Virus genome (UHGV): UHGV-0136979
DNA: 36,223 nucleotides
Direction: 5' to 3' (one strand)
DNA from: a virus
The position numbers and the translations under genes were made by a program. Positions 648-30,971 of the stretch are shown one piece after another; the first letter of the stretch is position 1; each line of letters begins with the position of its first letter. The notes under the pieces were generated by a model that saw only the letters and a program-made list of their open reading frames with translations, was not told where the DNA came from and made no database searches.

Positions 648-788
648 TTACTGCTTACACTGTAAGAACGCCGCAAACTCCGCTCCCCAGAAGCTCATCC
701 GTATTTCACACAGCGAACCGTGCAGCATCCAGATGATGAGGATTGCCGTCACGCAGAACGTGATGGCCGTAAGCGATTTTTGCGACAT
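648..788 (-). CDS. Hok/Gef-family type I toxin-like small membrane peptide (46 aa), not in the ORF track
   Basis: Own translation: MSQKSLTAITFCVTAILIIWMLHGSLCEIRMSFWGAEFAAFLQCKQ. N-terminal hydrophobic helix plus the SLCEIR and E-x-AAFL-x-CK motifs recalled from HokA/Hok/HokE. GGAG lies 8 nt upstream of the ATG at 788 inside a possible CTCC/GGAG hairpin; a perfect 9-bp-stem hairpin (617..638) follows the stop. Confidence 0.6.
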   Translation of the reverse strand: MSQKSLTAITFCVTAILIIWMLHGSLCEIRMSFWGAEFAAFLQCKQ

Positions 789-1240: not shown

Positions 1241-1597
1241 AGCAACCTCCCTTAATGTGGTGCTGTCGCTATTTTAAATTGTATTCGCAAATATGCAAAC
1301 TGACCGTCAGGTCAGTTTGAGGAACGGGCGTTTAATCATTAATAAAAATGTTCTCTGATGTTATTTATTATCTTGCCATTGTCAAATGATGATCTAATGA
1401 CTAATTATAACAAAAGAGTCTGTACATTATTTATATGTTTTGATAACTAGGTGTTTTTATATATTTATAGATTTAAAATATCATATAAAAATGTGTGTTA
1501 TAAAATCATCTGGTTTGAGTGAAAGGGCAGGAGGTGGATTTTTTCTGCCCTTTAATAATATAGTGCTAATGGAAACAATATCTATATACGAGTTATT

Positions 1598-2356
1598 CTA
1601 CTCTCTGTAAAATTCTGCGTGTAAAATTGAGGCCAGTGCTGATGGGTTTTCCCATGACATGGAATGTCCTGCTTTTGGCACTATTGCAACAGATATTCCT
1701 GATTCTTTTATATGCTGGAAATCATTGTCTGGCAATGATTGTTCGCCGAAAATTAGTGTACGTGAACAGGGCAGATTAAGGAAGATATCTCTCCATGATG
1801 GAGTGGCTCCATCAACCAGACTTTTGGCTCCTCGCCATATTGCCCATGGGGCTGCATTCTGGAGTTCACCTTTCCATGGGGATGTCTCTTGCTCCAGTAA
1901 TTCATCGTATATGTGTGAGATAAACTCTGCTTCTGGTTTCTCTATTATCTTACGACTATATGTACCTCCACCAGAGTGAAAATTAGGTTCAGAAACTACA
2001 AGCTTTCTTGTTCGTTCATGTAGTTGTCTGGCTACTTCAATCGCAATACTTCCTCCCATACTGTGACCATAAATATGGAACTGTGAGAGATTTAATGTTT
2101 CTACTACTTCAATAACAACTTTAGCTTGATGGGATATGCTGTAATCGAATCTTTTAGGCTTATCACTAAACCCATATCCAGGGAGATCTATCAATATTGC
2201 TCGTTGTCCACCAAATGCAGGGTCTGCAACAACCCGTGGATATTCATAAGAAGAAGAACAGCCAAGCCCATGAATAAAAATAACAGGAATACCCTGACCA
2301 GGTAAATCATGCCAACGTACATTTGCTCCGGCAATTAAAGAAAACAAACTGAACAT
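1598..2356 (-). CDS. alpha/beta-fold hydrolase (esterase-like; BioH/YbfF-like by eye), cargo gene
   Basis: 252 aa; HGLG oxyanion region, GHSMGG nucleophile elbow and C-terminal AGHSMSWENP histidine region; AT-rich flanks (1241..1597, 2357..2482) contrast with the phage backbone. Confidence 0.8.
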   Translation of the reverse strand: MFSLFSLIAGANVRWHDLPGQGIPVIFIHGLGCSSSYEYPRVVADPAFGGQRAILIDLPGYGFSDKPKRFDYSISHQAKVVIEVVETLNLSQFHIYGHSMGGSIAIEVARQLHERTRKLVVSEPNFHSGGGTYSRKIIEKPEAEFISHIYDELLEQETSPWKGELQNAAPWAIWRGAKSLVDGATPSWRDIFLNLPCSRTLIFGEQSLPDNDFQHIKESGISVAIVPKAGHSMSWENPSALASILHAEFYRE

Positions 2357-2482
2357 AATATGTACCTTTGCTTTTTCTTACAGGTATAACCTGTAACTCT
2401 GACTGTAAAGGATCTTCTATCCTTGTTCTTGCCTCGCTGTATCCAGAGAGTTTTTGTATATTAAATTAAACACCGAAGTTGC

Positions 2483-3592
2483 TCACTCTGTTTCTGCTAT
2501 CCATTCCGGGATTTTTGCTTCAAGCTCAAGCTGCGTGGTAAAACCGCTGTTATCAATGGTGTGCTCGGCTTTTGCAATAATCCAGTCCTGATTATCAATC
2601 TCGCTTTTAAATCCTGTTACCGTGCCATGCATTTCGGGGTAGAGTTCTGCGCGTCCGCGTGCCAGTGTGATGGAGAATGATGCGGCTCCGCGTTGTAGCT
2701 GCTGCCACTTTGCCGCCGCTGCGCGTCTTGCTGCCTGCTCGTTCTGATAAGTCTTGCGTAACACAAACACATTGCCTTCCGCACCTTCCATATAATCACC
2801 TTCACGGCTGCTGCTTTTCTCCTTTTTGGGTTTTGGCGGTTTGCGGCGTTTCACGCTGACTTTTTTCTTTTTCCCGTAATTAAGATCAAGCCAGTAAGCG
2901 CGTACCCCCGTATACGCTTCGCGGTCAGCAATGCGGAACTGATGTCGATCGCCACTGCTGCGCGTGATGGCGAACGAGGGCAACGGCTGGCCCTGCGCGT
3001 TCACGCCACCGCCTGGCATGATGAATAACAGATTACCGCTTTTTACCGTGGTGATTGCGCCCAGCATTTCCGCCATGCGCGTAAGGAAGGACATGTCGCT
3101 TTCTTCAGTCTGGTCGGCGTGGTCGATTTCGATATCCATCAGCATTTCGCTGATTTGCGGTTTCAGACCGTACCGATGAGCGATGGCGGATACCACGCGC
3201 TCAACGGTCACATCATGCCAGGACACTTCACGTTTAACGTTAAATTCATCCCGAAAATCTGCGCTTCTGGCTGAAACAGTCAGCCTGTCCGGCGGTCCTT
3301 CGTGTGCGATTTCATCAACAATGTAAGAGCCTTTTTCTGTCAGCGGTTCTCCTTTCCAGCCAATGAGAACCGTCAGGCGCGCGCCCCGTGGCGGTAGCTG
3401 CAACTGACCATCCGCATCATCCAGCGTGATGGTGAGCTGGTCCGCTTCAAATCCCCGGTTGTCGGTCAGTGACAGACTCATCAGGCGCTCTGCCACGCCG
3501 GACAGCCTTTTCCCCTCCGCGAGAATATCAAAATCCGGCATTTTCACGGGGTCTGTGCTTTGACTGAGCAATTGCATGGTGGTGTCGGTCAT
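2483..3592 (-). CDS. D: tail protein D (late control gene D family)
   Basis: 369 aa (P2 gpD is about 387 aa); lysine-rich central linker; strong RBS GGGAGGGA upstream of the ATG at 3592. Recognised by resemblance to gpD. Confidence 0.85.
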   Translation of the reverse strand: MTDTTMQLLSQSTDPVKMPDFDILAEGKRLSGVAERLMSLSLTDNRGFEADQLTITLDDADGQLQLPPRGARLTVLIGWKGEPLTEKGSYIVDEIAHEGPPDRLTVSARSADFRDEFNVKREVSWHDVTVERVVSAIAHRYGLKPQISEMLMDIEIDHADQTEESDMSFLTRMAEMLGAITTVKSGNLLFIMPGGGVNAQGQPLPSFAITRSSGDRHQFRIADREAYTGVRAYWLDLNYGKKKKVSVKRRKPPKPKKEKSSSREGDYMEGAEGNVFVLRKTYQNEQAARRAAAAKWQQLQRGAASFSITLARGRAELYPEMHGTVTGFKSEIDNQDWIIAKAEHTIDNSGFTTQLELEAKIPEWIAETE

Positions 3593-3748
3593 TCGTCCCT
3601 CCCTGTGCGGTATGGTCGCATGTGCGCACGGAGTGGGTTACTGCTTTTTGTTGTCGCCGTGGCGGGAGAACGGCGCAGGGGTGAGATTACGCGCGTGGTG
3701 GGTGATGATTGTTGCCGAATCATTTAACGGATACAAGGGGCTGAAGCT
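3593..3748. promoter_or_regulatory. divergent intergenic region between D (-) and FI (+); presumed late promoter region
   Basis: 156 bp separating two divergently oriented late genes, each with its own RBS; no clean TGT-N12-ACA Ogr box was found by eye. Confidence 0.35.
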
Positions 3749-4933
3749 ATGAGTGAAACTCGTTTTCATGGTGCCCGTGTTACGGAAAATACCGACCTGG
3801 TAACAGCGATTAACGATGTTGATTCCAGCGTTATCGGTATCGTGGCAACGGCGGATGATGCGGACGCGAAGCTGTTCCCGCTGAACAAGCCCACACTGCT
3901 GACCCGCGTCAATGACGTGCTGGGAAAATGCGGGACAACGGGGACGCTTTATCGTGCGCTTAAGGCCATCGCTGACCAGGTGAGCACAAAGGTGATCGTC
4001 GTTCGCGTGGCTGAACACAAAGAAGAAGACGGAAAGACGCAGGATCAACTGGTTATCGGTGGTTCTGAGGATGACGGCAGCTATACGGGGATGTATGCGC
4101 TGCTTGTTGCAGAGCAGGATGAAAGCATCGGATACCGTCCGCGTATTCTGGCCGCGCCGGAGCTGGACACGGAGGCGGTGACAAAATCCCTGTGCGTGAT
4201 TGCGGGTAAACTGCGCGCGTTTGTGTATGCCACATGTCATGGTTGTAACACGATGGCTGAGGCGATTACCTACCGCCAGAAATTCAACGAACGTGAGGTG
4301 ATGCTCTTATGGCCGGACTTCATCGCCTACAACCCGAAAAGTGGCAAAAACGAAACGTTCCCCGCGCCTGCCTATGCGTGCGGCCTTCGTGCGTACATTG
4401 ACCATGAGCAGGGCTGGCACAAATCACTGTCCAACGTTCCGGTTAAAAATGTGCTGGGGATGTCGAGGCATGTGTTCTGGTCGTTGCAGGCCGAAGACAG
4501 CGATGCCAACAGCCTCAACAACAAAGAAATCACGACCATTATTCGTCGCAACGGGTTCCGCTTCTGGGGCAACCGCACACCGGAAACGAACGCCTACATC
4601 TTTGAGGTGTATACCCGAACCGCACAGGTGCTGGCTGATTCAATTGCGGAAGCGCAGTTTGAAACCATCGACAGTCCACTGACGCCTGCGAACGTGAAGG
4701 ATGTTATCAGTGCCATCAGGGCAAAACTGGATTCACTGGTTACTGCCGGGAAACTGATTGGTGCGGAGTGCTGGTATGACGTGGTGGATAACGGCACCAC
4801 GAATTTACGTCAGGGACGTGTGCGTATTCGCTACAAATATACGCCTGTTCCCCCGCTGGAAGACATGGAGCTTTACCAGTCGTTTACTGATGAATTCTTT
4901 GGTCCCGCATTTGCGGTGCTGGGAGGTGCCTGA
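3749..4933 (+). CDS. FI: contractile tail sheath protein FI
   Basis: 394 aa (P2 FI is about 396 aa); N-terminal region resembles P2 FI (ADDADA..FPLNKP); immediately followed by the tube gene. Confidence 0.9.
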   Translation: MSETRFHGARVTENTDLVTAINDVDSSVIGIVATADDADAKLFPLNKPTLLTRVNDVLGKCGTTGTLYRALKAIADQVSTKVIVVRVAEHKEEDGKTQDQLVIGGSEDDGSYTGMYALLVAEQDESIGYRPRILAAPELDTEAVTKSLCVIAGKLRAFVYATCHGCNTMAEAITYRQKFNEREVMLLWPDFIAYNPKSGKNETFPAPAYACGLRAYIDHEQGWHKSLSNVPVKNVLGMSRHVFWSLQAEDSDANSLNNKEITTIIRRNGFRFWGNRTPETNAYIFEVYTRTAQVLADSIAEAQFETIDSPLTPANVKDVISAIRAKLDSLVTAGKLIGAECWYDVVDNGTTNLRQGRVRIRYKYTPVPPLEDMELYQSFTDEFFGPAFAVLGGA

Positions 4934-5445
4934 TGGCTGTACCAAAACATCTTCGCTTTTTTACGTTGTTTGTGGATGGTGAAAACGAAGTGGGTAAAGT
5001 GACATCCGTCACGCCGCCCAAACTGACGCGCAAAACCGACAGTTATCGTGGTGGTGGCATGATGGGGGCGGTAAGTATTGATCTCGGTCTGGACGACTCC
5101 GCGCTTGATGCGAGTTTTGTCATGGGGGGAGCTGTTCGTGCGCTGTTCCTTAAATATGGCGGCACGATTGACGGCACGCTGCTGCGTTTTGCGGGTGAAT
5201 ACTACACCGATGCAGAAAGCGATCTGTATGAAATCGAGATGCGCGGGCGTGTGACGGAAATTGATATGGGGGAAGCCAAACAGGGCGAAGCCACATCACA
5301 CACTTACGCTGTCAAAAACACCTACTACAAGCTGAGCGTTAACGATCGCCCGCTGTGGGAAATCGACCTGTTGAACCACATCTACCGGAAGGACGGCAAG
5401 GACATTGTGCCTGACCGTATCCGTTCCGCGCTCGGGCTTGGCTGA
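4933..5445 (+). CDS. FII: tail tube protein FII
   Basis: 170 aa (P2 FII is 172 aa); start overlaps the FI stop. Confidence 0.9.
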   Translation: MAVPKHLRFFTLFVDGENEVGKVTSVTPPKLTRKTDSYRGGGMMGAVSIDLGLDDSALDASFVMGGAVRALFLKYGGTIDGTLLRFAGEYYTDAESDLYEIEMRGRVTEIDMGEAKQGEATSHTYAVKNTYYKLSVNDRPLWEIDLLNHIYRKDGKDIVPDRIRSALGLG

Positions 5446-5500
5446 TAAGTAATATGCAGGCGGCACAGTGCGTCGCCTCTGACTGAAAAGGAGACAACTG

Positions 5501-5875
5501 ATGAAAGACATCGATACTGAAACCCGGAATAACACCGTGGCGGATGATGTGACGGCAGGTGAGGATATGGCTGTCGAACGTGGTGTAAAACTTTCCCGGC
5601 CAATTGAGCGTGGTGGCGAAAAAATCACGTATGTGGAGATCACAGGGGCTATTGAGCAGGCTGGATCCCTGCGTGGTCTGTCGCTGTCTGATGTGCTGAA
5701 TCTGAAAGCGGATACCATGTTCACGCTGTTGCCTCGCGTGACCTCGCCACGACTGGATGAAGTGATGATTAAAAAAATGTCGTCACGCGATTTTATTCAG
5801 TTGTGCGCTGCGGCTGTAAATTTTATGAGCGAGCCAGACTCTGGCGCGAAGAGCGTGCAGGAGACGGCAGCGTAA
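5501..5875 (+). CDS. E: tail assembly chaperone E (zero-frame product)
   Basis: Small ORF between tube and tape-measure genes; overlapped by a -1 frame ORF (E'), the conserved arrangement in P2-like phages. Confidence 0.7.
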   Translation: MKDIDTETRNNTVADDVTAGEDMAVERGVKLSRPIERGGEKITYVEITGAIEQAGSLRGLSLSDVLNLKADTMFTLLPRVTSPRLDEVMIKKMSSRDFIQLCAAAVNFMSEPDSGAKSVQETAA

Positions 5876-6039
5876 TCACCCTGGTGTGCTTTGAGCACAT
5901 CGAAGATCTGGTGGCGGATATTGCCGCCATTTTTAACTGGTCGCCCGCCGAAATCTTCATGATGACGCCCGGCGAAGTGGTTAGCTGGCGTGAGCGGGCG
6001 GCACTTCGCAGCGGGAATGCAGACAATGAAGACTCTTGA
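5776..6039 (+). CDS. E': E' extension of the E+E' fusion, reached by programmed -1 frameshift
   Basis: The -1 frame is open from 5773 (after TAA at 5770..5772) to the TGA at 6037..6039; an A7 run at 5771..5777 is the only slippery tract in the overlap; the E portion up to the tract is about 92 aa, matching P2 gpE (91 aa). Confidence 0.5.
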   Translation, partial: NVVTRFYSVVRCGCKFYERARLWREERAGDGSVITLVCFEHIEDLVADIAAIFNWSPAEIFMMTPGEVVSWRERAALRSGNADNEDS

Positions 6040-8833
6040 TATCCGGGTCGCTTTCAGCGCCGTTGACAGGCTGACCCGGCCTGCCGAAAACGCCCGCCGC
6101 CTGATGGGGCAGTTTGGTGACTCCATCCAGCGAACGCAGGGGGCGATCAAAAATCTCGAGCGTCAGGCGCGTTCATTTGAGCGCGCCCGCGACGCTGTCA
6201 GTAAAGCGGATGCGGGCATCGTGAAAGCACGACGCCAGCTTAACGCCCTTAATCAGTTACAACGCACGGGTACAGTGCTCAGCGAAAAACAACAAAAGCT
6301 GATGCAGCAGTTAAGCACCCGGCTTGAACGCCTGAATGAATCGCGCACACGGGAAATTCAGAAAATGCGGGAACTTGGCGGAGAACTGAAACGCCACGGC
6401 ATTTCCCTGACAGGCAGCGATAACACCATTCAGCAGGCCATCAGACGTACCGAACAGTACAACAACCAGCTTGAACGCGAACGGCAGGCGCTTGCGCGTG
6501 TAACGCGGGCGCGTGAGCGGTATTCGCGCGCGCAGGAAACAGCGGGAAAACTGAAAACAGGTGGTGCACTGGCAATTGGTGCGGCAGCGGCGGGCGGCTA
6601 TGCTGCCGGGCGTTTTTTGCAGCCTGCGATCGGGTTCGGCAAAGAGATGTCCCGCGTTCAGGCACTGACGCGAATCGACCAGAACAGCCCGCAGTTTAAG
6701 GCGCTGCGTGAGCAGGCGTTAAAACTTGGCTCTGAAACACAGTTTACTGCGAGTGATGCCGCCAGTGGGCAGAGCTTTCTGGCAATGGCTGGTTTTACTC
6801 CGCAGGCCATTCAGGCCGCATTGCCCGGTGTTCTTAATATGGCGCTGGCAGGTGGCGTCGAACTCGGCGAGACGGCTGATATAGGCTCCAATATCCTCAC
6901 ACAGTTCAACCTGACAGCCGATCAAATGGACCGGGTTGGCGATACGCTGACAGCGGCATTCACCCGGACCAATACTGATTTACGCGCGCTGGGCGAAACC
7001 ATGAAGTATACCGGTCCGGTTGCCGCAAAACTTGGTATCAGTCTTGAAGAAGCGGCAGCCATGGCCGGGATGCTTGCCAATAATGGTCTTCGCGGAAGCG
7101 ATGCTGGTACGGCCATGCGCGCAAGTCTGTCCCGCCTTGCATCACCGCCAAAAGCTGCGGCTGATGCGCTGAAAGAGCTGGGAGTGTCAGTTGCTGACGC
7201 CAGAGGCAAAATGCGCCCGATGGAGGATGTGCTGCTTGATCTCTATAAGGCGACACAAAAATACGGACAGGTGGACCAGGTTTCCTTCTTCAAGGACATC
7301 GCCGGAGAAGAGGCGTTCGTTGGTTTGCAGACGCTTGTTGCGGCGGCTGGTTCAGGAGAGCTGCAAAAACTGACCAGAGAATTGCAGGGGGCAAGGGGAG
7401 AGGCCGATCGCGTTGCAAAAGTAATGGCCGATAATCTTGATGGGGACCTGAAAAATCTCGACAGCGCATGGGAAGGTCTTCGTATTCGCATCAGTGATCT
7501 GGTTGACGGTCCGCTGCGTTCTGTCACGCAGTGGCTCACGCGGGTGCTTGAAAAAATCACCTCGCTGGCGCAGGCCCATCCGGTACTGACGCGCCAGCTA
7601 CTGATAGCAGGCGGTGCGTTGCTGGCAATGACTGCAACGATTGGCTCGTTGTCGCTGGTTATTGGGGTGCTTTACGGGAAGCTGGCCACCTTGCGTCTTG
7701 GTTTCGACATTCTTACCCGGTCAATGAATGTCATCAGGGTGTTGCCTGCGCTGTGGGGAATGGTGACGGGTTCTGTTTCTTTGCTGGGAGGCGCTATCGG
7801 GGCGCTGTTCAGTCCGGTTGGTCTTATCGTGGCTGCGCTTGCCGGAGCTGCCGTTCTTATCTGGAAATACTGGGATCCCATCAGGGTATTTTTTGCCGGG
7901 GTGTTCAGCGGGATTATGGAACGGCTGGCTCCGTTGCGCGAAACCTTTGAACGGTTTGGCCCTGTTTTTGACGCAATCGGAAGCGGGATCAGCCAGGTGT
8001 TTAACTGGTTTAAATCGCTGCTGTCACCGATGGAGTCCAGCAAGGAAACGCTGGATAAATGTACCAGTGCTGGCGAGATATTCGGTAACGTTCTTGGCGG
8101 TGCGTTACAGCTTGTTCTGACACCTGCAAAAATGCTACTGGATACGCTGGCGTGGATACTTGAAAAACTTGGCGTCCTTCCGGATGAAGCGGAAAGGGCG
8201 CGCAAGAAAATCGAAGACGCACAGCGTGCAGCCATTCTTCAGGACAAGGTTGCCTTGCTTCAGGGGGACCTGGCGAAAATCAATCCGCCGAAGCCTGTGG
8301 AAAATGGCAATGGCACCGGAGGTGATAAACCCAAAGACAACAAACCGCTCACAGACAGCAATACCGGGACGCTACGCAGACTCAGCAAAATTGCTGATAA
8401 CACAGGTAAGCTGGTTGATGAGACGAAAAAACGCATTGGCCCCGGCGATATTGTCTTTAAGAACCTGCCCCGCGCACTTGCTGTTCGTGGGGAGTGGCAG
8501 GAGCGGAAGATTGCGCATGTCAGTAAGCCTGCCCCCGCAATTAATATCACACCCGTGGTCCCGGCTCCGCTGCCTCCGGCGCTGGTCCCTGTTGTTGCGG
8601 CCAGCTCCCGCCCGGTGGCGGAGGCTATACGATCTCCAGTGGCATCAGTTCCTGTAACTTCCCGTAACCGGGAGCCTGTTGCCTCCGGATTTGGTGGTGA
8701 AATTCATGTTCATCTGCATAACGTTGTTACGCAGAATCCCCGCGAACTGGCGAAACTGGTCGGTGAAATGGTCAGGGCAGAAATGGAACGGCGCGCCCGT
8801 GCCGGGCGTGGCAGTTTTTACGATAAAGATTGA
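5990..8833 (+). CDS. T: tail tape measure protein T
   Basis: 947 aa, coiled-coil N-terminus, Gly/Ala-rich hydrophobic central segments, located after E/E'. Track start is GTG at 5990; ATG at 6017 or 6026 are alternatives. Confidence 0.9.
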   Translation: MSGRHFAAGMQTMKTLDIRVAFSAVDRLTRPAENARRLMGQFGDSIQRTQGAIKNLERQARSFERARDAVSKADAGIVKARRQLNALNQLQRTGTVLSEKQQKLMQQLSTRLERLNESRTREIQKMRELGGELKRHGISLTGSDNTIQQAIRRTEQYNNQLERERQALARVTRARERYSRAQETAGKLKTGGALAIGAAAAGGYAAGRFLQPAIGFGKEMSRVQALTRIDQNSPQFKALREQALKLGSETQFTASDAASGQSFLAMAGFTPQAIQAALPGVLNMALAGGVELGETADIGSNILTQFNLTADQMDRVGDTLTAAFTRTNTDLRALGETMKYTGPVAAKLGISLEEAAAMAGMLANNGLRGSDAGTAMRASLSRLASPPKAAADALKELGVSVADARGKMRPMEDVLLDLYKATQKYGQVDQVSFFKDIAGEEAFVGLQTLVAAAGSGELQKLTRELQGARGEADRVAKVMADNLDGDLKNLDSAWEGLRIRISDLVDGPLRSVTQWLTRVLEKITSLAQAHPVLTRQLLIAGGALLAMTATIGSLSLVIGVLYGKLATLRLGFDILTRSMNVIRVLPALWGMVTGSVSLLGGAIGALFSPVGLIVAALAGAAVLIWKYWDPIRVFFAGVFSGIMERLAPLRETFERFGPVFDAIGSGISQVFNWFKSLLSPMESSKETLDKCTSAGEIFGNVLGGALQLVLTPAKMLLDTLAWILEKLGVLPDEAERARKKIEDAQRAAILQDKVALLQGDLAKINPPKPVENGNGTGGDKPKDNKPLTDSNTGTLRRLSKIADNTGKLVDETKKRIGPGDIVFKNLPRALAVRGEWQERKIAHVSKPAPAINITPVVPAPLPPALVPVVAASSRPVAEAIRSPVASVPVTSRNREPVASGFGGEIHVHLHNVVTQNPRELAKLVGEMVRAEMERRARAGRGSFYDKD

Positions 8834-8839
8834 GGAGTC

Positions 8840-9334
8840 ATGGCCATGATGATGATCTACGGCATGTTTGTTTTTGAGCTGCGCACGCTGCCGCATCAGC
8901 AGTTACAGCAAAACAAAAGCTGGCGGCATGTGAAAAATGAACGCGTTAACCGTTCAGCAAGCTGGCAGTATATCGGTGCAGGTGATGATCGCATCGTTCT
9001 TTCTGGTGTGCTTTATCCTGAAATTACAGGTGGCGAAGTGTCGCTGTCGCTGCTGACCACGCAGGCGTATACAGGACGCCCCTGGCCTCTTATTGATGGC
9101 GTCGGGCAGATTTACGGCATGTATGTCCTGACCGAAACGAATACGACCCGTTCCGAGTTTGATCGCTACGGTAAGGCGAAAAAGATAGAATTTTCACTGA
9201 CCCTTGAACGCTGTGATGAGGATTTGCGGGAGCGCCTGCAATCCTCATCGTTCAGCGATATGCTGTCCGGCTTCAAAGATAAAGTGACATCATCCCTTAA
9301 CAGCGCGGCCAGTTCAGTTAAAGGGCTGTTCTGA
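8840..9334 (+). CDS. U: tail protein U
   Basis: 164 aa (P2 gpU is 159 aa); GAGGAG RBS; directly follows T. Confidence 0.85.
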   Translation: MAMMMIYGMFVFELRTLPHQQLQQNKSWRHVKNERVNRSASWQYIGAGDDRIVLSGVLYPEITGGEVSLSLLTTQAYTGRPWPLIDGVGQIYGMYVLTETNTTRSEFDRYGKAKKIEFSLTLERCDEDLRERLQSSSFSDMLSGFKDKVTSSLNSAASSVKGLF

Positions 9335-9504: not shown

Positions 9505-10068
9505 ATGCTGAATAATAGAGATATGAATATTAATGAACTTAAAGATTGTATTCACTATGAAGTAATCGGTAGCGAGCGTCCTTTCTCCTGGCGAAAGGCA
9601 ATTGTTCGCGCAATAAAACATAGAAGAGTTCGTTATTTATTTTGGTGGCGCATAGCCAAATACCTTTTTGATAAAGGCGGATACTGTCGGAAGATTGCGG
9701 GGAAAATAGAACGTTTCATTCTTGATAAATATAATGTAACAGTCCCTTTAACTGTAAATATAGGGAAAGGCTTTGATATTTCTTATCTCAACAGTGTTGT
9801 TATCGGTCACAAAGTAACAATCGGTGAAAATTGTTCAATAAAACCAGGGGTAACTATTGGGCTGCGTGGTGATTTTAATGATATGGATATTGTTATAGGA
9901 CATAATGTGACCATTGGTTGTAATGCCACCATTCTTGGTGGCAAAGTGCGTATAGGAAACAATGTCACAATAGGTGCTCATGCATTGGTATTGCATGATA
10001 TTCCTGATGATTCAACATTCATCACTAAATTTCAGTCTGAAGTTATCTGCTCGTCCTCCCGCACATAA
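9505..10068 (+). CDS. hexapeptide-repeat (left-handed beta-helix) acyltransferase, cargo gene in the Z/fun position
   Basis: 187 aa with tandem [LIV]-G-x4 hexapeptide repeats ([22 protein letters not shown]...[33 protein letters not shown]); markedly AT-rich; 3' end overlaps G convergently by 37 nt. Confidence 0.75.
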
Positions 10069-21601: not shown

Positions 21602-21722
21602 GATGGCAAAGCGTAACAGGCTGATACAAAGGGCTTTTGTTGTAAGAAAACGGCCAGAACAGGGGGGTAAGGAGAACGGTTTCGCGCGCGGGTAATCTTC
21701 CTGTAATTACTCAGGGGGAGCA
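21602..21722. promoter_or_regulatory. divergent late promoter region between O (-) and P (+)
   Basis: 121-bp intergenic region between divergent late operons as in P2; only an imperfect TGT-N12-AGA dyad seen near 21641..21658. Confidence 0.4.
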
Positions 21723-27112: not shown

Positions 27113-28072
27113 TTACTCCTTGTCCATTGCGTACAGCCCATTAACCAGAGCAAACTGTGGCACCCCGTCCGCGATGAAAGTCGCATTAACTCCGCAGGCT
27201 TCGCGGATAGCGGGTGCCACAATCTCCGCCCCGCCACCGACAACCATCACCCGCCCGTAACCCGAAAAACCCGCCAGCGCGCGGATCACGCGTTGTTTCA
27301 GTGTTTCTTCCTTTTCACGAATAACCGCCATCAGGTTGGCGTAATGCGCGTCATTGTGGATGTGCTGGCGCAGCCAGGCTTCATCATGGCGATGTTCGAT
27401 AATGGTATTGGCGATGTGGTGACTGGTGCGCATACCGTTAGTGGCCATCACCGACAGTACGGCATCGGCCATCAGAGAAACGCCTACGTGTGGATCGCAA
27501 AACACCTGGCTGATACCTGCCAGTTGCCCCTGAACCTTTGCCACATCCAGCGTGGTTCCGCCCAAATCCACAATCAGCAGGGATTCAAACGGACTCATGT
27601 CAGCCAGTGCTTTAAAGCCAGCCGGAATGGATTCAGGCATAACCCGTACGTTACGGATAGTGAATGCTTCGCCGTTCTGGTACTCCACCGGGCGCATAAC
27701 GTTCGCTTTTTTGCGGCTGATGTTAGCCATGTCCGGCTGTGCGTTTGTGTCGAAATACTCGCTCAGTGGCAGGGTGACAACCACATCCACCTCCTGTGGC
27801 GTGATGCCTGATTTGACCAGCGCGTGATGAATGGCAATGACATTCACATCGCTGTACTGGTATTGCGTGTCGGTCGTCTGGACAAAGCGATCGCTGACCG
27901 GATCAAAACCATAGCGCACGCCATCAAGCATGTAGTTCGCGGGCTGCGTACCACCGAACGGCGCAGACCATTCCGACTTGAAGCTGTTCGGGCTGATGGC
28001 GTTGCGGCGTTCGCCGTTCTCAGTCCATGCCAGCTTGATGTTGGTGGAACCGTCGTCGATACAAATTTTCAT
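27113..28072 (-). CDS. parM: ParM/StbA-family actin-like ATPase
   Basis: 319 aa; MKICIDDGSTNIKLAW (phosphate-1), LIVDLGGTTLDV (phosphate-2) and VMVVGGGAEIV (adenosine) motifs; near-collinear resemblance to plasmid R1 ParM from memory. Confidence 0.85.
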   Translation of the reverse strand: MKICIDDGSTNIKLAWTENGERRNAISPNSFKSEWSAPFGGTQPANYMLDGVRYGFDPVSDRFVQTTDTQYQYSDVNVIAIHHALVKSGITPQEVDVVVTLPLSEYFDTNAQPDMANISRKKANVMRPVEYQNGEAFTIRNVRVMPESIPAGFKALADMSPFESLLIVDLGGTTLDVAKVQGQLAGISQVFCDPHVGVSLMADAVLSVMATNGMRTSHHIANTIIEHRHDEAWLRQHIHNDAHYANLMAVIREKEETLKQRVIRALAGFSGYGRVMVVGGGAEIVAPAIREACGVNATFIADGVPQFALVNGLYAMDKE

Positions 28073-28216: not shown

Positions 28217-30971
28217 TTCCACTGGTCAGGCCACCCCGCAGCAGGTCTGCTTTGCGGCGGGCGCGTTCAGTGGTTTCACTGATTCTCTGTGCGTGCTCTG
28301 CGTCACGGATGGCGCGCAGCATGTCAGAAAGCACGGTAACGGGTGTTTTCATGGTGTTCTGGTCCTGCTGAAGTGTGGATGCCAGGCGTGCGGCGGCTTC
28401 AGGGTCTGATGCCCCCAGCTGTTCCAGATAGCTGGCGACCGGGTTATGGCGGATCTCCGTGCTGCTTACGCCGTGATTACGGCTCAGGCGTTGCCAGAGC
28501 TGCGTGATCCGGCTGTCCGGGCGGGTATCCGGTTTGCGTACAATTTCAAATCCCTGCGGTGCAATGATGCTGCCGTCAACGTACAGACTGCCGCCCCGTA
28601 ACAGGTGCTGCATCTGTTGTTCACCGATATGCAGGCCGAGAGATTCAGCAGACTCCCGCCATTCTTTAGCGAGTAATTCGTGGTTATCAGGCAAAGGCCG
28701 CGGCTGTTTGCGGCTCTGTGTCCAGCTCTGCATTTCATCACTGCTGTTTTTTGCCTGTTTGTCACGAAGCGAACGCATCAGCGCCCGGCGTTCGTGCCGT
28801 TTCAGTGAGCGCATCCATTCGTTCACGTCAACGCCATCAGGAAGCTGCGGCCACGGTGCTGGCCGTTCTTCCGGCTGTTCTGTCCCGTTGTTGTCCGTTT
28901 CCTGTACACGGGGACAGTTATTGCCACGAGTCCAAGGGGCGGCAGGGCCGCCCTGAAGGTCAAAACCATTTTCGCGGGCGCTGTCTTCCGCTTCCGGTTT
29001 GCGTCTTACCAGCTTCCAGTTGTCCGGATGCGTGCATACGCGGGAAGACTCCCCGATGAGCGGTGACCAGATCCCGTAAATCTGTACGCTCTGTTCACCG
29101 TAATCGTTCAGCTCATCTGCGAGGTCGTAGGCGGTGCGAATCAGGTAGTCCTTGCGTGGAACAAGTACGCCGCCCTGTTTCTCTATGTAGGTGGCAAAAC
29201 ATCCGGCATCAGCGGCAGCAAGAACCGCGTCCATTGCGTCATCCTTCAGCCGTTGCGGTCCTTCCGGGTTGCGAGCCATCTGGCTGGCAAGGCGGCGCAG
29301 TTCACGCCACACCTGACGGGAGGGGATACCAAAGAACTGGAACTGGCGGACCCGGTGAAGGCGCGCCCAGCCGATGGCGCGTTCCACGCTCTCGGCCATT
29401 GATTTTCCGGTTTCGTGGTCAACGCGTGGCTTGCCCGTTTTCGGGTCGATGCCATCCACGGCACGGCTGTCCAGGTTTTTCCCGATGTAGGTGGCGATGT
29501 AGCTGGTCGGTGTGCCTTTTGAGCCGTCGACGTACTCCGCCTTAAAGCGTGGGGTAATATCATCACCCAGCTCGTGACGATCTTCCTGAATGGCAATATC
29601 GCGGGTGTGGGACACAATAGTGTCGATTTCTTCCGGATGAGCAAAGACCATCATATGCCAGTGCACGGTGCCGTCATGGTGAGGCTCCACCGTGCGGATG
29701 CCATACCAGCGCAGGCCGTCGCGGTTCAGTTTCTTGCGGACCGCCGCAAAAAACGTGTTAACCAGGTAATCGCTGGAGTCGCGCATGGTGGCCCCGTTCC
29801 ATTTGGGATTCGGATGACCGTTCTCCGTTGTTGCGTGGTATTTTGACGGGCAGGTGACAGTCAGAAACACCGCTTTGTCGCCACGGGCTTCGGCCAGAAG
29901 TTCCAGCCCCTTCATGGTGGCCATCATTTCTGCCTTACGGTGAACCGGGTTACTTACTCCCGCGTAATACACTGTCTCGAGATCAATCGTGAACCCATCT
30001 TCGTTTTCCAGCATGAAACTTTTCAGGAAATCGCGTGTTTTCTCGCGCTGTGCGCGAAACTCGCTTAATGCGTCCTGGCTCAGATAGGGCGATGTTTTTC
30101 TGGAAACCAGACAGGCGGCGCGGAGTTGTTCTTCTCTCCACTCGCAACGTAACAGCCACAGTTTGCGTTTCCACCATTCCGTACAGGTCAGGCGAAGGAT
30201 TGCGCCCGGCAGCAGCTCCGTGTCCGGTTCGTTCCTCCGGTCTTTATCTGTTGTCAGTGCGTCATAATGTGGAGGCATGATGTGCAGGTGTAACGCCATG
30301 CGGGCCAGCATCTGATACGCCTTCAGCGTTACATCCATGGTCAGTTCGCCATCGGTCGCGCCAAAGCCATCGCAGAGTTTTTCGAAGGTGCTGCTGAACA
30401 TCGCCGCCGTCATGGTGGCCAGCGTCTGTATCTGGTGCTTGTTGAGCTGCGGCAGGTAAAGCAAATCATCCAGGCGTTCGCGTCCGGCAAGGGAGCGATA
30501 ACCCGGTGTCAGCCAGCGATGGTCGGTGCGGTCCAGACGTTCGAATATTTTGCGCAGGGTTCCGCGCGCGTAGCGTTCAGCCTGCCAGCTCTTTTTGCCT
30601 TTCCGGCGATCGGCTTCCTGTTTTTTGCGCAGGAAGGAGAGGTGGCGAATAAGCGGATCGCGCAGATAGGACGGCAGCAGGCGCAGCGAGGCCATGGCTT
30701 CATCCACCGCACCGCGTACCTGTTTTCTGGCGTCTCCTGCCAGTGTGATGGTTTTGTCCTGTTTTTCCTGTGCGTCCAGGCTTTTATTAATCAGGTTGCC
30801 CAGCGGCGTGGCGGAGAACGCCGCATCAGCCATTTCCTGGCGGCGCTCGTTCTCTGCCCGGTAGGCATCCAGCCAGGAGGAAAGCGCGGATTCAGGAACG
30901 GGGATCCCCGTTCCTTCACGCCCCACTGCGTGGCGCGGTTGTTGCCAGTCCCTGATGTACTCTGCCGTCAT
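28149..30971 (-). CDS. A: replication initiation endonuclease A (rolling-circle, HUH type)
   Basis: 940 aa; HUH-like TVHWHMMVF and paired active-site tyrosines SYIATYIGK; conserved position. About 180 aa longer than P2 gpA (761 aa, from memory). Confidence 0.9.
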   Translation of the reverse strand: MTAEYIRDWQQPRHAVGREGTGIPVPESALSSWLDAYRAENERRQEMADAAFSATPLGNLINKSLDAQEKQDKTITLAGDARKQVRGAVDEAMASLRLLPSYLRDPLIRHLSFLRKKQEADRRKGKKSWQAERYARGTLRKIFERLDRTDHRWLTPGYRSLAGRERLDDLLYLPQLNKHQIQTLATMTAAMFSSTFEKLCDGFGATDGELTMDVTLKAYQMLARMALHLHIMPPHYDALTTDKDRRNEPDTELLPGAILRLTCTEWWKRKLWLLRCEWREEQLRAACLVSRKTSPYLSQDALSEFRAQREKTRDFLKSFMLENEDGFTIDLETVYYAGVSNPVHRKAEMMATMKGLELLAEARGDKAVFLTVTCPSKYHATTENGHPNPKWNGATMRDSSDYLVNTFFAAVRKKLNRDGLRWYGIRTVEPHHDGTVHWHMMVFAHPEEIDTIVSHTRDIAIQEDRHELGDDITPRFKAEYVDGSKGTPTSYIATYIGKNLDSRAVDGIDPKTGKPRVDHETGKSMAESVERAIGWARLHRVRQFQFFGIPSRQVWRELRRLASQMARNPEGPQRLKDDAMDAVLAAADAGCFATYIEKQGGVLVPRKDYLIRTAYDLADELNDYGEQSVQIYGIWSPLIGESSRVCTHPDNWKLVRRKPEAEDSARENGFDLQGGPAAPWTRGNNCPRVQETDNNGTEQPEERPAPWPQLPDGVDVNEWMRSLKRHERRALMRSLRDKQAKNSSDEMQSWTQSRKQPRPLPDNHELLAKEWRESAESLGLHIGEQQMQHLLRGGSLYVDGSIIAPQGFEIVRKPDTRPDSRITQLWQRLSRNHGVSSTEIRHNPVASYLEQLGASDPEAAARLASTLQQDQNTMKTPVTVLSDMLRAIRDAEHAQRISETTERARRKADLLRGGLTSGNKKQTETGLTNPVNEQKTRSDI

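Follow-up and report, generated by a model that had tools for sequence, protein, structure and literature searches.

The accessory-gene hotspots described for phage P2 are old/tin near cos and Z/fun within the tail genes (Rousset et al. 2022, PMC9122126), and hotspots of the P2 family are rich in defence systems (PMC9122126; PMC13586616). Taken together, the 2022 study and a 2026 Nucleic Acids Research survey of P2/P4 defence hotspots (PMC13586616) cover sites near cos, at Z/fun, around the integrase and within the tail genes, and neither of them mentions ogr. A third hotspot in the iLund4u preprint may, on a circular map, include D-ogr-att-int-C and so could be the locus described here; in the available portion of that preprint it is not placed more precisely, ogr goes unmentioned and no hydrolase is listed among the cargo. 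The junction between the tail gene D and the late-gene activator ogr has, at most, been noted coarsely in the earlier literature. Here we describe this junction in UHGV virus genome UHGV-0136979 (36,223 nucleotides; this whole stretch is called the window below), where it carries a gene for a 252-residue serine hydrolase of the alpha/beta fold. The D-ogr junction is a real, finely bounded prophage swap-site, and we give a probability of about 0.5 to the reading that its occupant in the window is an accessory gene from which the lysogen profits, encoding a hydrolase of small molecules that works on its own.

A swap-site between D and ogr

As an earlier note on this DNA had said, ogr directly follows D in P2, where the two genes are 81 bp apart, the annotated ogr promoter lies inside the gap, and the terminator beyond ogr also serves the F operon. 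The separation is 1242 bp in the window (1241-2482), and the minus-strand order at its left end is D, a 126-bp spacer, the hydrolase open reading frame (ORF), a 357-bp spacer, ogr and a hok/sok module (Table 1). The phage belongs to the P88/Xuanwuvirus group (Peduoviridae; P2 family) and is not P2 proper; over the D and ogr flanks the nearest sequenced phages are P88, P88_4B11 (Xuanwuvirus), phiSM, 500465-2 and 520873, at 94-96% identity. Because FI-FII-E-T-U lie on the plus strand (3749-9334), opposite to D, the gene order is not that of P2. Transcription of D probably starts in the divergent D/FI region (3593-3748).

In the empty site of P88_4B11, 42 bp separate the D stop codon from the ogr start. 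Homology between this phage and the window ends at 1281 and restarts at 2476, both by BLAST and in the alignment, and the breakpoints of five other alleles fall at the same bases. A boundary sequence of ~10 bp is present as a single copy, TTCTAAGTTG, in empty sites and on both sides of every cargo. The GC content of the insert (1282-2475) is 37.1% vs. 52.3% for the window, with 26.6% in the spacer at 1320-1597, and GC at third codon positions is 27% in the hydrolase coding sequence (CDS) vs. 58% in D. The proposed AT-rich insert of ~1.2 kb between ogr and D is thus there, and the empty relatives and the break in homology bear out the hydrolase gene as cargo.

Both flanks are present in 1492 of 5426 complete E. 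coli genomes, and the hydrolase insert in just six of the 5426, at 93% identity. We sampled 40 junctions with both flanks, evenly spaced down the ranking of E. coli matches, and found 29 to be empty (spans of 1591-1600 bp) and 11 to be occupied. According to the annotation of the occupied sites, the cargoes seen are nine different single genes, in either orientation and at the same boundaries. These nine cargoes at shared boundaries, together with the empty sites, establish the junction as a swap-site, and the earlier suggestion of a cargo locus here holds. Two things expected of hotspot cargo were found, namely variable content, including empty sites, between conserved flanks, and a composition unlike that of the surroundings. 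The same boundaries, the ~10-bp flanking repeat and the varied cargoes suggest that recombination within the near-identical flanks, D and ogr, is the most likely route by which cassettes are exchanged.

The slot resembles the P2 hotspots (PMC9122126) in having variable AT-rich cargo at fixed boundaries between conserved genes, exchanged among related phages, and in that the function of many cargo genes is not established. It differs from them in lying between D and the ogr promoter, in the P88/Xuanwuvirus lineage with its split and inverted tail operon, and in being mostly empty, with nine alleles that are all single genes and match no known defence model. It is not one of the P2 hotspots under another name, since its position differs from both Z/fun (tail-fibre genes to FI) and old/tin (A to portal, near cos).

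Such a setting brings up the alternative of a single-gene function in anti-phage defence or abortive infection, similar to the cargo of the two known P2 hotspots, by which the hydrolase would break down a molecule of the phage or the host and so protect the lysogen from other phages; we consider this rather unlikely. It would fit the location in a prophage hotspot of a family whose hotspots are rich in defence systems (PMC9122126; PMC13586616), the AT-rich, foreign character of the gene, and the other alleles of the slot, all of them single genes, among them one for a PIN_12 protein, one with a weak HEPN_RiboL-PSP match and several unknowns. It is harder to reconcile with the comparison to PADLOC-DB v2, in which the hydrolase matched 0 families at E <= 1 and the eight other cargoes matched no model, apart from weak and partial E2 similarities of the SEC-C protein. 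The hydrolase has neither a partner nor a sensor gene beside it. In Enterobacter, Klebsiella and Kosakonia its relatives, with clusters of 940 and 1078 member sequences, behave as stable chromosomal genes, syntenic and of host-like GC, unlike patchy defence genes. The eight other cargoes are themselves candidate new defence or toxin genes.

The hydrolase and its relatives

The ORF encodes the predicted 252-residue serine hydrolase with a GHSMGG motif, with matches well above the cut-offs to the Pfam families Abhydrolase_1 (E 4e-21; 76.2 bits, cut-off 25.8) and Abhydrolase_6 (E 4e-17; 64 bits, cut-off 26.3; residues 25-242). Conservation was assessed in an alignment of 32 sequences, which was also used for the AlphaFold2 model. 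G97-H-S99-M-G101 and H231 (within AGHSMSWENP) are invariant in the 32 relatives, as is E123, which lies in SEPN directly after strand 116-122, whereas D210, at the canonical position of the acid after strand beta7, is <90% conserved. The model (mean predicted local distance difference test score, pLDDT, 94.4; predicted template-modelling score, pTM, 0.92) shows the strands in canonical order and a helical lid spanning roughly residues 123-197, with strand 93-98 preceding Ser99 and strand 222-226 preceding His231. As E123 is invariant and D210 is not, we infer a catalytic triad Ser99-His231-Glu123 in which Glu123 is the likely acid, placed after strand beta6. The first strand begins at residue 2, which leaves no room for a signal peptide, and the enzyme is predicted to be cytoplasmic, without signal peptide or membrane segment.

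A Foldseek search of the PDB returned 1589 chains at E <= 0.001, and among the matches listed all are alpha/beta-fold enzymes. The top matches are esterases, aryl esterase/perhydrolases, acyl-homoserine lactone (AHL) lactonases, CumD and DhaA, and none of them stands out. Compared with the lid-bearing hydrolases 1va4 (the P. fluorescens aryl esterase), Est1 (6eb3, 8v16), AidH (4g5x), Est816 (5egn), DhaA (1cqw) and CumD (1iun), the protein is alike in its fold (template-modelling scores 0.7-0.8), its nucleophile elbow and the position of the His after the last strand, and unlike in sharing only 15-22% identity and in having its own motif, SEPNFHxGGG, which is specific to the hydrolase family here. 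In DhaA-type enzymes the catalytic acid stands directly after strand beta6, and the invariant Glu appears to occupy the same place, as judged from this layout and the alignment offset; the nucleophile is Ser, so the hydrolase is not a dehalogenase. No named enzyme family was reached at its cut-off in NCBIfam, and sequence and fold searches of the PDB give generic relatives only. Assignment by profile and structure therefore yields the alpha/beta-hydrolase fold and no specific enzyme family. The only PHROG families matched are phrog_789 and phrog_23613, esterase/lipase genes of mycobacteriophages, which are likewise phage-borne alpha/beta hydrolases; they match over the N-terminal half only, at 33-38% identity, and neither their hosts and genome positions nor their likely roles are related to those here. 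The SOS link described below prompted the idea of a kinship with AlbD, the albicidin-cleaving serine hydrolase (an amidase) of Pantoea dispersa, which stays an idea only; of the 120 closest relatives listed for a Pantoea plasmid homolog, not one bears the name AlbD or comes from P. dispersa.

Substitution patterns indicate that the gene is under purifying selection in the prophage. The ratio of nonsynonymous to synonymous divergence (dN/dS) is 0.10 between the window and the allele of the E. coli M8 prophage (dN 0.022, dS 0.22) and 0.065 between the window and the relative in Enterobacter sp. 638. A degraded ORF with broken catalytic residues, which would have been a different matter, is not what we see: the frame is intact and the Ser and His are invariant. 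The related prophages share no single conserved gene at the variable D-ogr junction and the ORF is not decayed, so that both of the findings named in the earlier note as contrary to its proposal are absent. These data also bear on the possibility that the cassette is a passenger without current function, recently captured and kept by linkage. Its rarity (6/5426 complete E. coli genomes), its foreign composition and the lack of a promoter in our scan would all agree with this, and we nevertheless regard it as very improbable, given the low dN/dS at a dS of 0.22 while non-coding parts of the insert differ by 17-25% between the same two alleles, the preservation of the stem of a terminator-like hairpin by compensatory change (the paired positions 1526 and 1549 are both changed in M8), and the presence of the exact protein in 159 blocks of the assembly collection.

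All six of the loci listed for the exact protein are D-ogr junctions of P88-like prophages, and these prophages are inserted at several chromosomal places. Relatives at 69-78% identity are found at the end of a different prophage, after its tail-fibre assembly gene (Enterobacter sp. 638), beside an island integrase (Yersinia canariae), near an integrase fragment (Y. frederiksenii) and between fryA and ypdC (Citrobacter). Across the various contexts of the gene, homology extends no further than the CDS and ~20 nt of the ribosome-binding region. No neighbour gene common to the contexts was found, from which it would follow that the hydrolase acts alone, and the neighbours of the chromosomal homologs are unrelated housekeeping genes with no functional partner among them. 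Recurrent carriage by phages is not borne out: IMG/VR holds just the same prophage type and one match at a contig end (60% identity), and the phage collection holds distant partial matches and no close relative. On 193-kb plasmids of Salmonella (NZ_CP034710, NZ_CP034699; loci L009-L011), the closest relative outside E. coli (78%) immediately follows a Tn3-family resolvase gene, and a Serratia silvae relative (76%, L071) is followed by a beta-lactamase-family gene.

More distant relatives, which share ~50-63% identity, occur widely in Enterobacter, Leclercia, Lelliottia, Kosakonia, Klebsiella, Raoultella, Pluralibacter, Pseudocitrobacter and Buttiauxella. A strict CTGT-N8-ACAG site lies <=60 nt upstream of the start in 25 of the 54 homolog loci fetched, nearly always 32-41 nt upstream of the start codon, with the consensus TACTGTATAAAAACACAGT, which matches the E. 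coli LexA box. The other 554 kb of the same loci hold three matches, a 1400-fold enrichment near the start. The spacer around the box differs between genera while the box itself stays. The boxed genes have host-like GC (56-62%) and most are syntenic, convergent with srfC-srfB; in Buttiauxella the box is present in a different context. The chromosomal relatives thus appear, from these sites, to belong to the SOS regulon, and our search of the open-access literature turned up no SOS-regulated alpha/beta hydrolase for these genera. The mobile clade that includes the window has no LexA box and a GC of 41-51%. A LexA box can be discounted for the prophage gene: none lies in the insert, the sole match in the window is at 28902, and the local repeat upstream of the gene reads ACAG-N7-CTGT, with the half-sites reversed. 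A precedent for a LexA-controlled gene that counters a DNA-damaging toxin and does not repair DNA may be seen in the E. coli gene sbmC/gyrI, which is induced in the SOS response and guards the cell against microcin B17, a poison of gyrase (cited in PMC10414762). A role of this kind would explain why LexA boxes precede the chromosomal hydrolases; this is an analogy only, as the hydrolase has an unrelated fold and no LexA box stands before its prophage copy.

Control elements of the cassette and neighbouring genes

The earlier note had described a 15-bp perfect palindrome at 2379-2393, just upstream of the gene, as a candidate operator. Symmetry and place stand; the sequence in question, ACAGGTATAACCTGT, lies at 2380-2394 and is not a perfect palindrome, since its central ATA is not self-complementary, and it is better described as part of an interrupted inverted repeat (2378-2396) that ends 21 nt upstream of the hydrolase ATG. 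By a hand estimate that allows some ten spacer lengths, the chance of an 8+8 repeat in the 126-bp spacer is ~0.02. The repeat is identical in the M8 allele and in all loci with the exact allele, and is absent from the other contexts of the gene; it falls inside the longest undiverged run between the window and M8 (2377-2403), in an upstream spacer that differs at 21 of 126 positions. It stands where the LexA box stands in the chromosomal relatives. Conservation and rarity together are suggestive, not decisive. There is no second copy in the window, and the only other match, with 3 mismatches, is at chance level, which gives no backing to an operator bound by a regulator of the phage. Nor is the repeat likely to terminate D intrinsically, as no T-run follows it on either strand, and the resemblance of its core, GGT-N3-ACC, to a FadR/GntR-type site is by eye only and is given no weight.

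No sigma-70-like promoter passed the consensus scan of the 126 bp upstream of the hydrolase, the by-eye match TTTACA-15-TATACC being poor, and no terminator-like site was found by scan between D and the gene. Late promoters of P2 carry a TGT-N12-ACA dyad. An Ogr-type late promoter of this form at 2455-2472 was rejected, with 7 matches in the window vs. 8.6 expected by chance. The divergent late regions of the window (3593-3748 and 21602-21722) have no exact TGT-N12-ACA and share TTGTTGT...GGAGAACGG, which the insert lacks. Within them, the D/FI and O/P regions (3640-3690 and 21625-21690) have TTTTGTTGT and GGAGAACGG in common, and these shared motifs may be the recognition pattern of a P88-type Ogr.

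An alternative is that the hydrolase is a late phage function, co-transcribed with D and ogr on induction and used in the lytic cycle, for example in envelope or lipid hydrolysis or in host takeover, with a timing that would mirror the response of its LexA-controlled relatives to DNA damage. In keeping with this, the gene has the same orientation as D and ogr, with no promoter-like site upstream and no terminator-like site before it; the F operon of P2 reads through to the terminator beyond ogr; and the chromosomal relatives lie behind LexA boxes and so would be expressed on DNA damage, a condition that commonly induces prophages. About three quarters of the related prophages, however, lack any gene at this place and others have unrelated genes, so that its function must be dispensable for phage growth. 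With no close relative in the phage collection, no signal peptide or membrane segment by which to reach the envelope, and no trace in the insert of the motifs common to the two divergent late-promoter regions, we think it improbable that the hydrolase has a late lytic function.

The hairpin at 1522-1553 is taken as the terminator of the cassette, as predicted from its sequence and RNA fold. The second hairpin, at 1296-1319, is not conserved in M8 (differences at 1297-1306 and 1316), and its function is doubtful. The ogr promoter-like site takes its -35 from the cargo end and its -10 from the conserved, ogr-proximal copy of the boundary sequence. A small RNA or peptide in the AT-rich 357-bp spacer was considered and dropped: there is no Rfam match and no coding-strand ORF of at least 20 residues, and this spacer is ~25% different from that of M8.

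Table 1. Positions of the elements at the D-ogr junction and in related loci (window coordinates unless a locus is named).
Feature	Position	Strand	Basis or remark
ogr, late-gene activator; conserved left flank of the slot	980-1240	minus	Pfam Ogr_Delta; flanks 96-97% identical in 1492 E. coli genomes
ogr promoter-like site TTTGCA-17-TAAAAT	1271-1299	minus	consensus scan; boundary alignment; P2 ogr promoter in the equivalent gap
Left copy of the boundary repeat, TTTTAAATTG	1272-1281		alignments
Cargo insert relative to empty-site P88-like phages, ~1.19 kb	1282-2475		BLAST/alignment breakpoints; composition
Hairpin with 10-bp stem, ogr-proximal insert end, overlapping the -35 of the ogr promoter-like site	1296-1319	minus	fold z -2.9
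Terminator-like hairpin, 9-bp stem AAAGGGCAG/CTGCCCTTT, 14-nt loop, 45 nt after the hydrolase stop	1522-1553	minus	inverted repeat; RNA fold
Alpha/beta-fold serine hydrolase, 252 residues	1598-2356	minus	ORF; Pfam; invariant columns; AlphaFold2 model; dN/dS
Interrupted inverted repeat TTACAGGT-ATA-ACCTGTAA, 8-bp arms, 3-nt spacer; candidate regulatory site	2378-2396		sequence
Right copy of the boundary repeat, ACCGAAGTTG, immediately after the D stop codon	2472-2481		alignments
D, tail gene; conserved right flank of the slot	2483-3592	minus	Pfam Phage_GPD
Slot cargoes with a Pfam assignment			hydrolase; 340 residues (weak HEPN_RiboL-PSP match); 356-residue PIN_12; 379-residue SEC-C/YecA-family
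Slot cargoes without Pfam domain			five, of 132, 201, 229, 384 and 465 residues
The eight non-hydrolase cargoes	L002:2031-3053; L003:979-1377; L005:2244-2933; L015:925-2064; L016:724-1794; L017:800-1405; L018:883-2280; L019:847-2001		
Examples of loci with a LexA box (among L034-L083 and others)	L012:5964-5979; L042; L036; L053		

Several other features of the window were seen along the way. Just beyond ogr lies a hok/gef-family toxin ORF (648-788, minus strand) with a match to the sok antitoxin RNA at 778-935 (46.9 bits, under the gathering score of 59), and this place next to ogr is kept in all P88-like relatives inspected. The stretch beyond hok varies among P88_4B11, 500465-2 and L025 and looks like a further variable region; at the prophage end (50-518) it has two small plus-strand ORFs, for a DUF4177 protein (80 residues, weak match) and a YidD-like protein of the membrane protein insertion efficiency factor family (77 residues, E 4e-18). 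A hexapeptide-repeat acetyltransferase (187 residues) at 9505-10068, between the tail gene U and a tail-fibre assembly gene, is a possible surface-modifying conversion gene in a place that may correspond to a Z/fun-type hotspot. The early region of this integrating prophage encodes a ParM/StbA-type actin-like segregation protein (319 residues, E 4e-82) at 27113-28072. Finally, RefSeq cuts D in many E. coli prophages to 266 residues ('VgrG/Pvc8 family') plus a 93-nt pseudogene fragment, as at L001:4578-5431 and at the same place in L005 and L016-L020; the full 369-residue D ORF is open in the window and in phage records, and the truncation is probably an annotation artefact.

What the cassette may do

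The reading that we prefer, a stand-alone hydrolase carried for the lysogen, would work as follows. A one-gene accessory cassette would occupy a recombinational swap-site between the D stop codon and the -10 of the ogr promoter, that promoter being rebuilt at the cassette end. The enzyme would act alone on a small ester, amide or lactone substrate and would benefit the lysogen as a moron-type gene, with no part in virion production; the LexA boxes of the distant chromosomal relatives suggest that the normal job of the family may be tied to DNA damage. Most simply, transcription would come from the D late transcript, read through the cassette towards ogr, as the F operon reads on in P2, and attenuated by the hairpin, the repeat upstream of the gene adding a second level of control. 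The gene may instead have a weak promoter itself, regulated through this repeat.

A number of points weigh against this reading. The acid of the putative triad is assigned from conservation and strand position only, and neither a substrate nor an enzyme subfamily could be assigned. Of the named NCBIfam equivalogs compared (MenH, PcaD, RutD, BioH, haloalkane dehalogenase, MhpC/BphD and the 16-membered macrolide esterase) none was reached, the best scoring 67-21 bits vs. cut-offs of 167-570 and over the N-terminal half only. Read-through solely from a late promoter would mean expression in lytic growth, which fits a benefit to the lysogen poorly. The PIN_12 protein and the weak HEPN-like domain among the other alleles give the slot a flavour of defence, not metabolic, cargo. 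Finally, the LexA boxes were seen in relatives of 50-63% identity, and the link that they suggest may not hold for the copy in the prophage.

As a kind, accessory hotspot cargo in a P2-family prophage is already known, and the prophage gene alone is an ordinary accessory gene. The parts of interest are the D-ogr position, the uncatalogued set of single-gene alleles and the apparent SOS regulation of the chromosomal relatives. P2-family hotspots have already yielded several new anti-phage systems, and a slot with fixed boundaries, occupied in about one quarter of the P88-like junctions sampled from E. coli, is an inexpensive and sharply defined target in the search for new functions; the nine single-gene alleles seen are all uncatalogued, PIN and HEPN-like proteins included. 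That the hydrolase family moves among prophages, Tn3 plasmids and islands without a partner gene implies a stand-alone benefit. More speculatively, and with the odds against it, the D-ogr slot may be an unrecognised reservoir of uncatalogued single-gene anti-phage and stress functions, with the hydrolase as a mobilised, LexA-box-free copy of an undescribed SOS-regulated family of the Enterobacteriaceae that would either destroy a DNA-damaging small molecule (cf. sbmC) or act as a new enzymatic defence. Should the chromosomal relatives in Enterobacter, Klebsiella, Kosakonia and others indeed belong to the SOS regulon, the response to DNA damage in genera of clinical importance would gain an enzyme.

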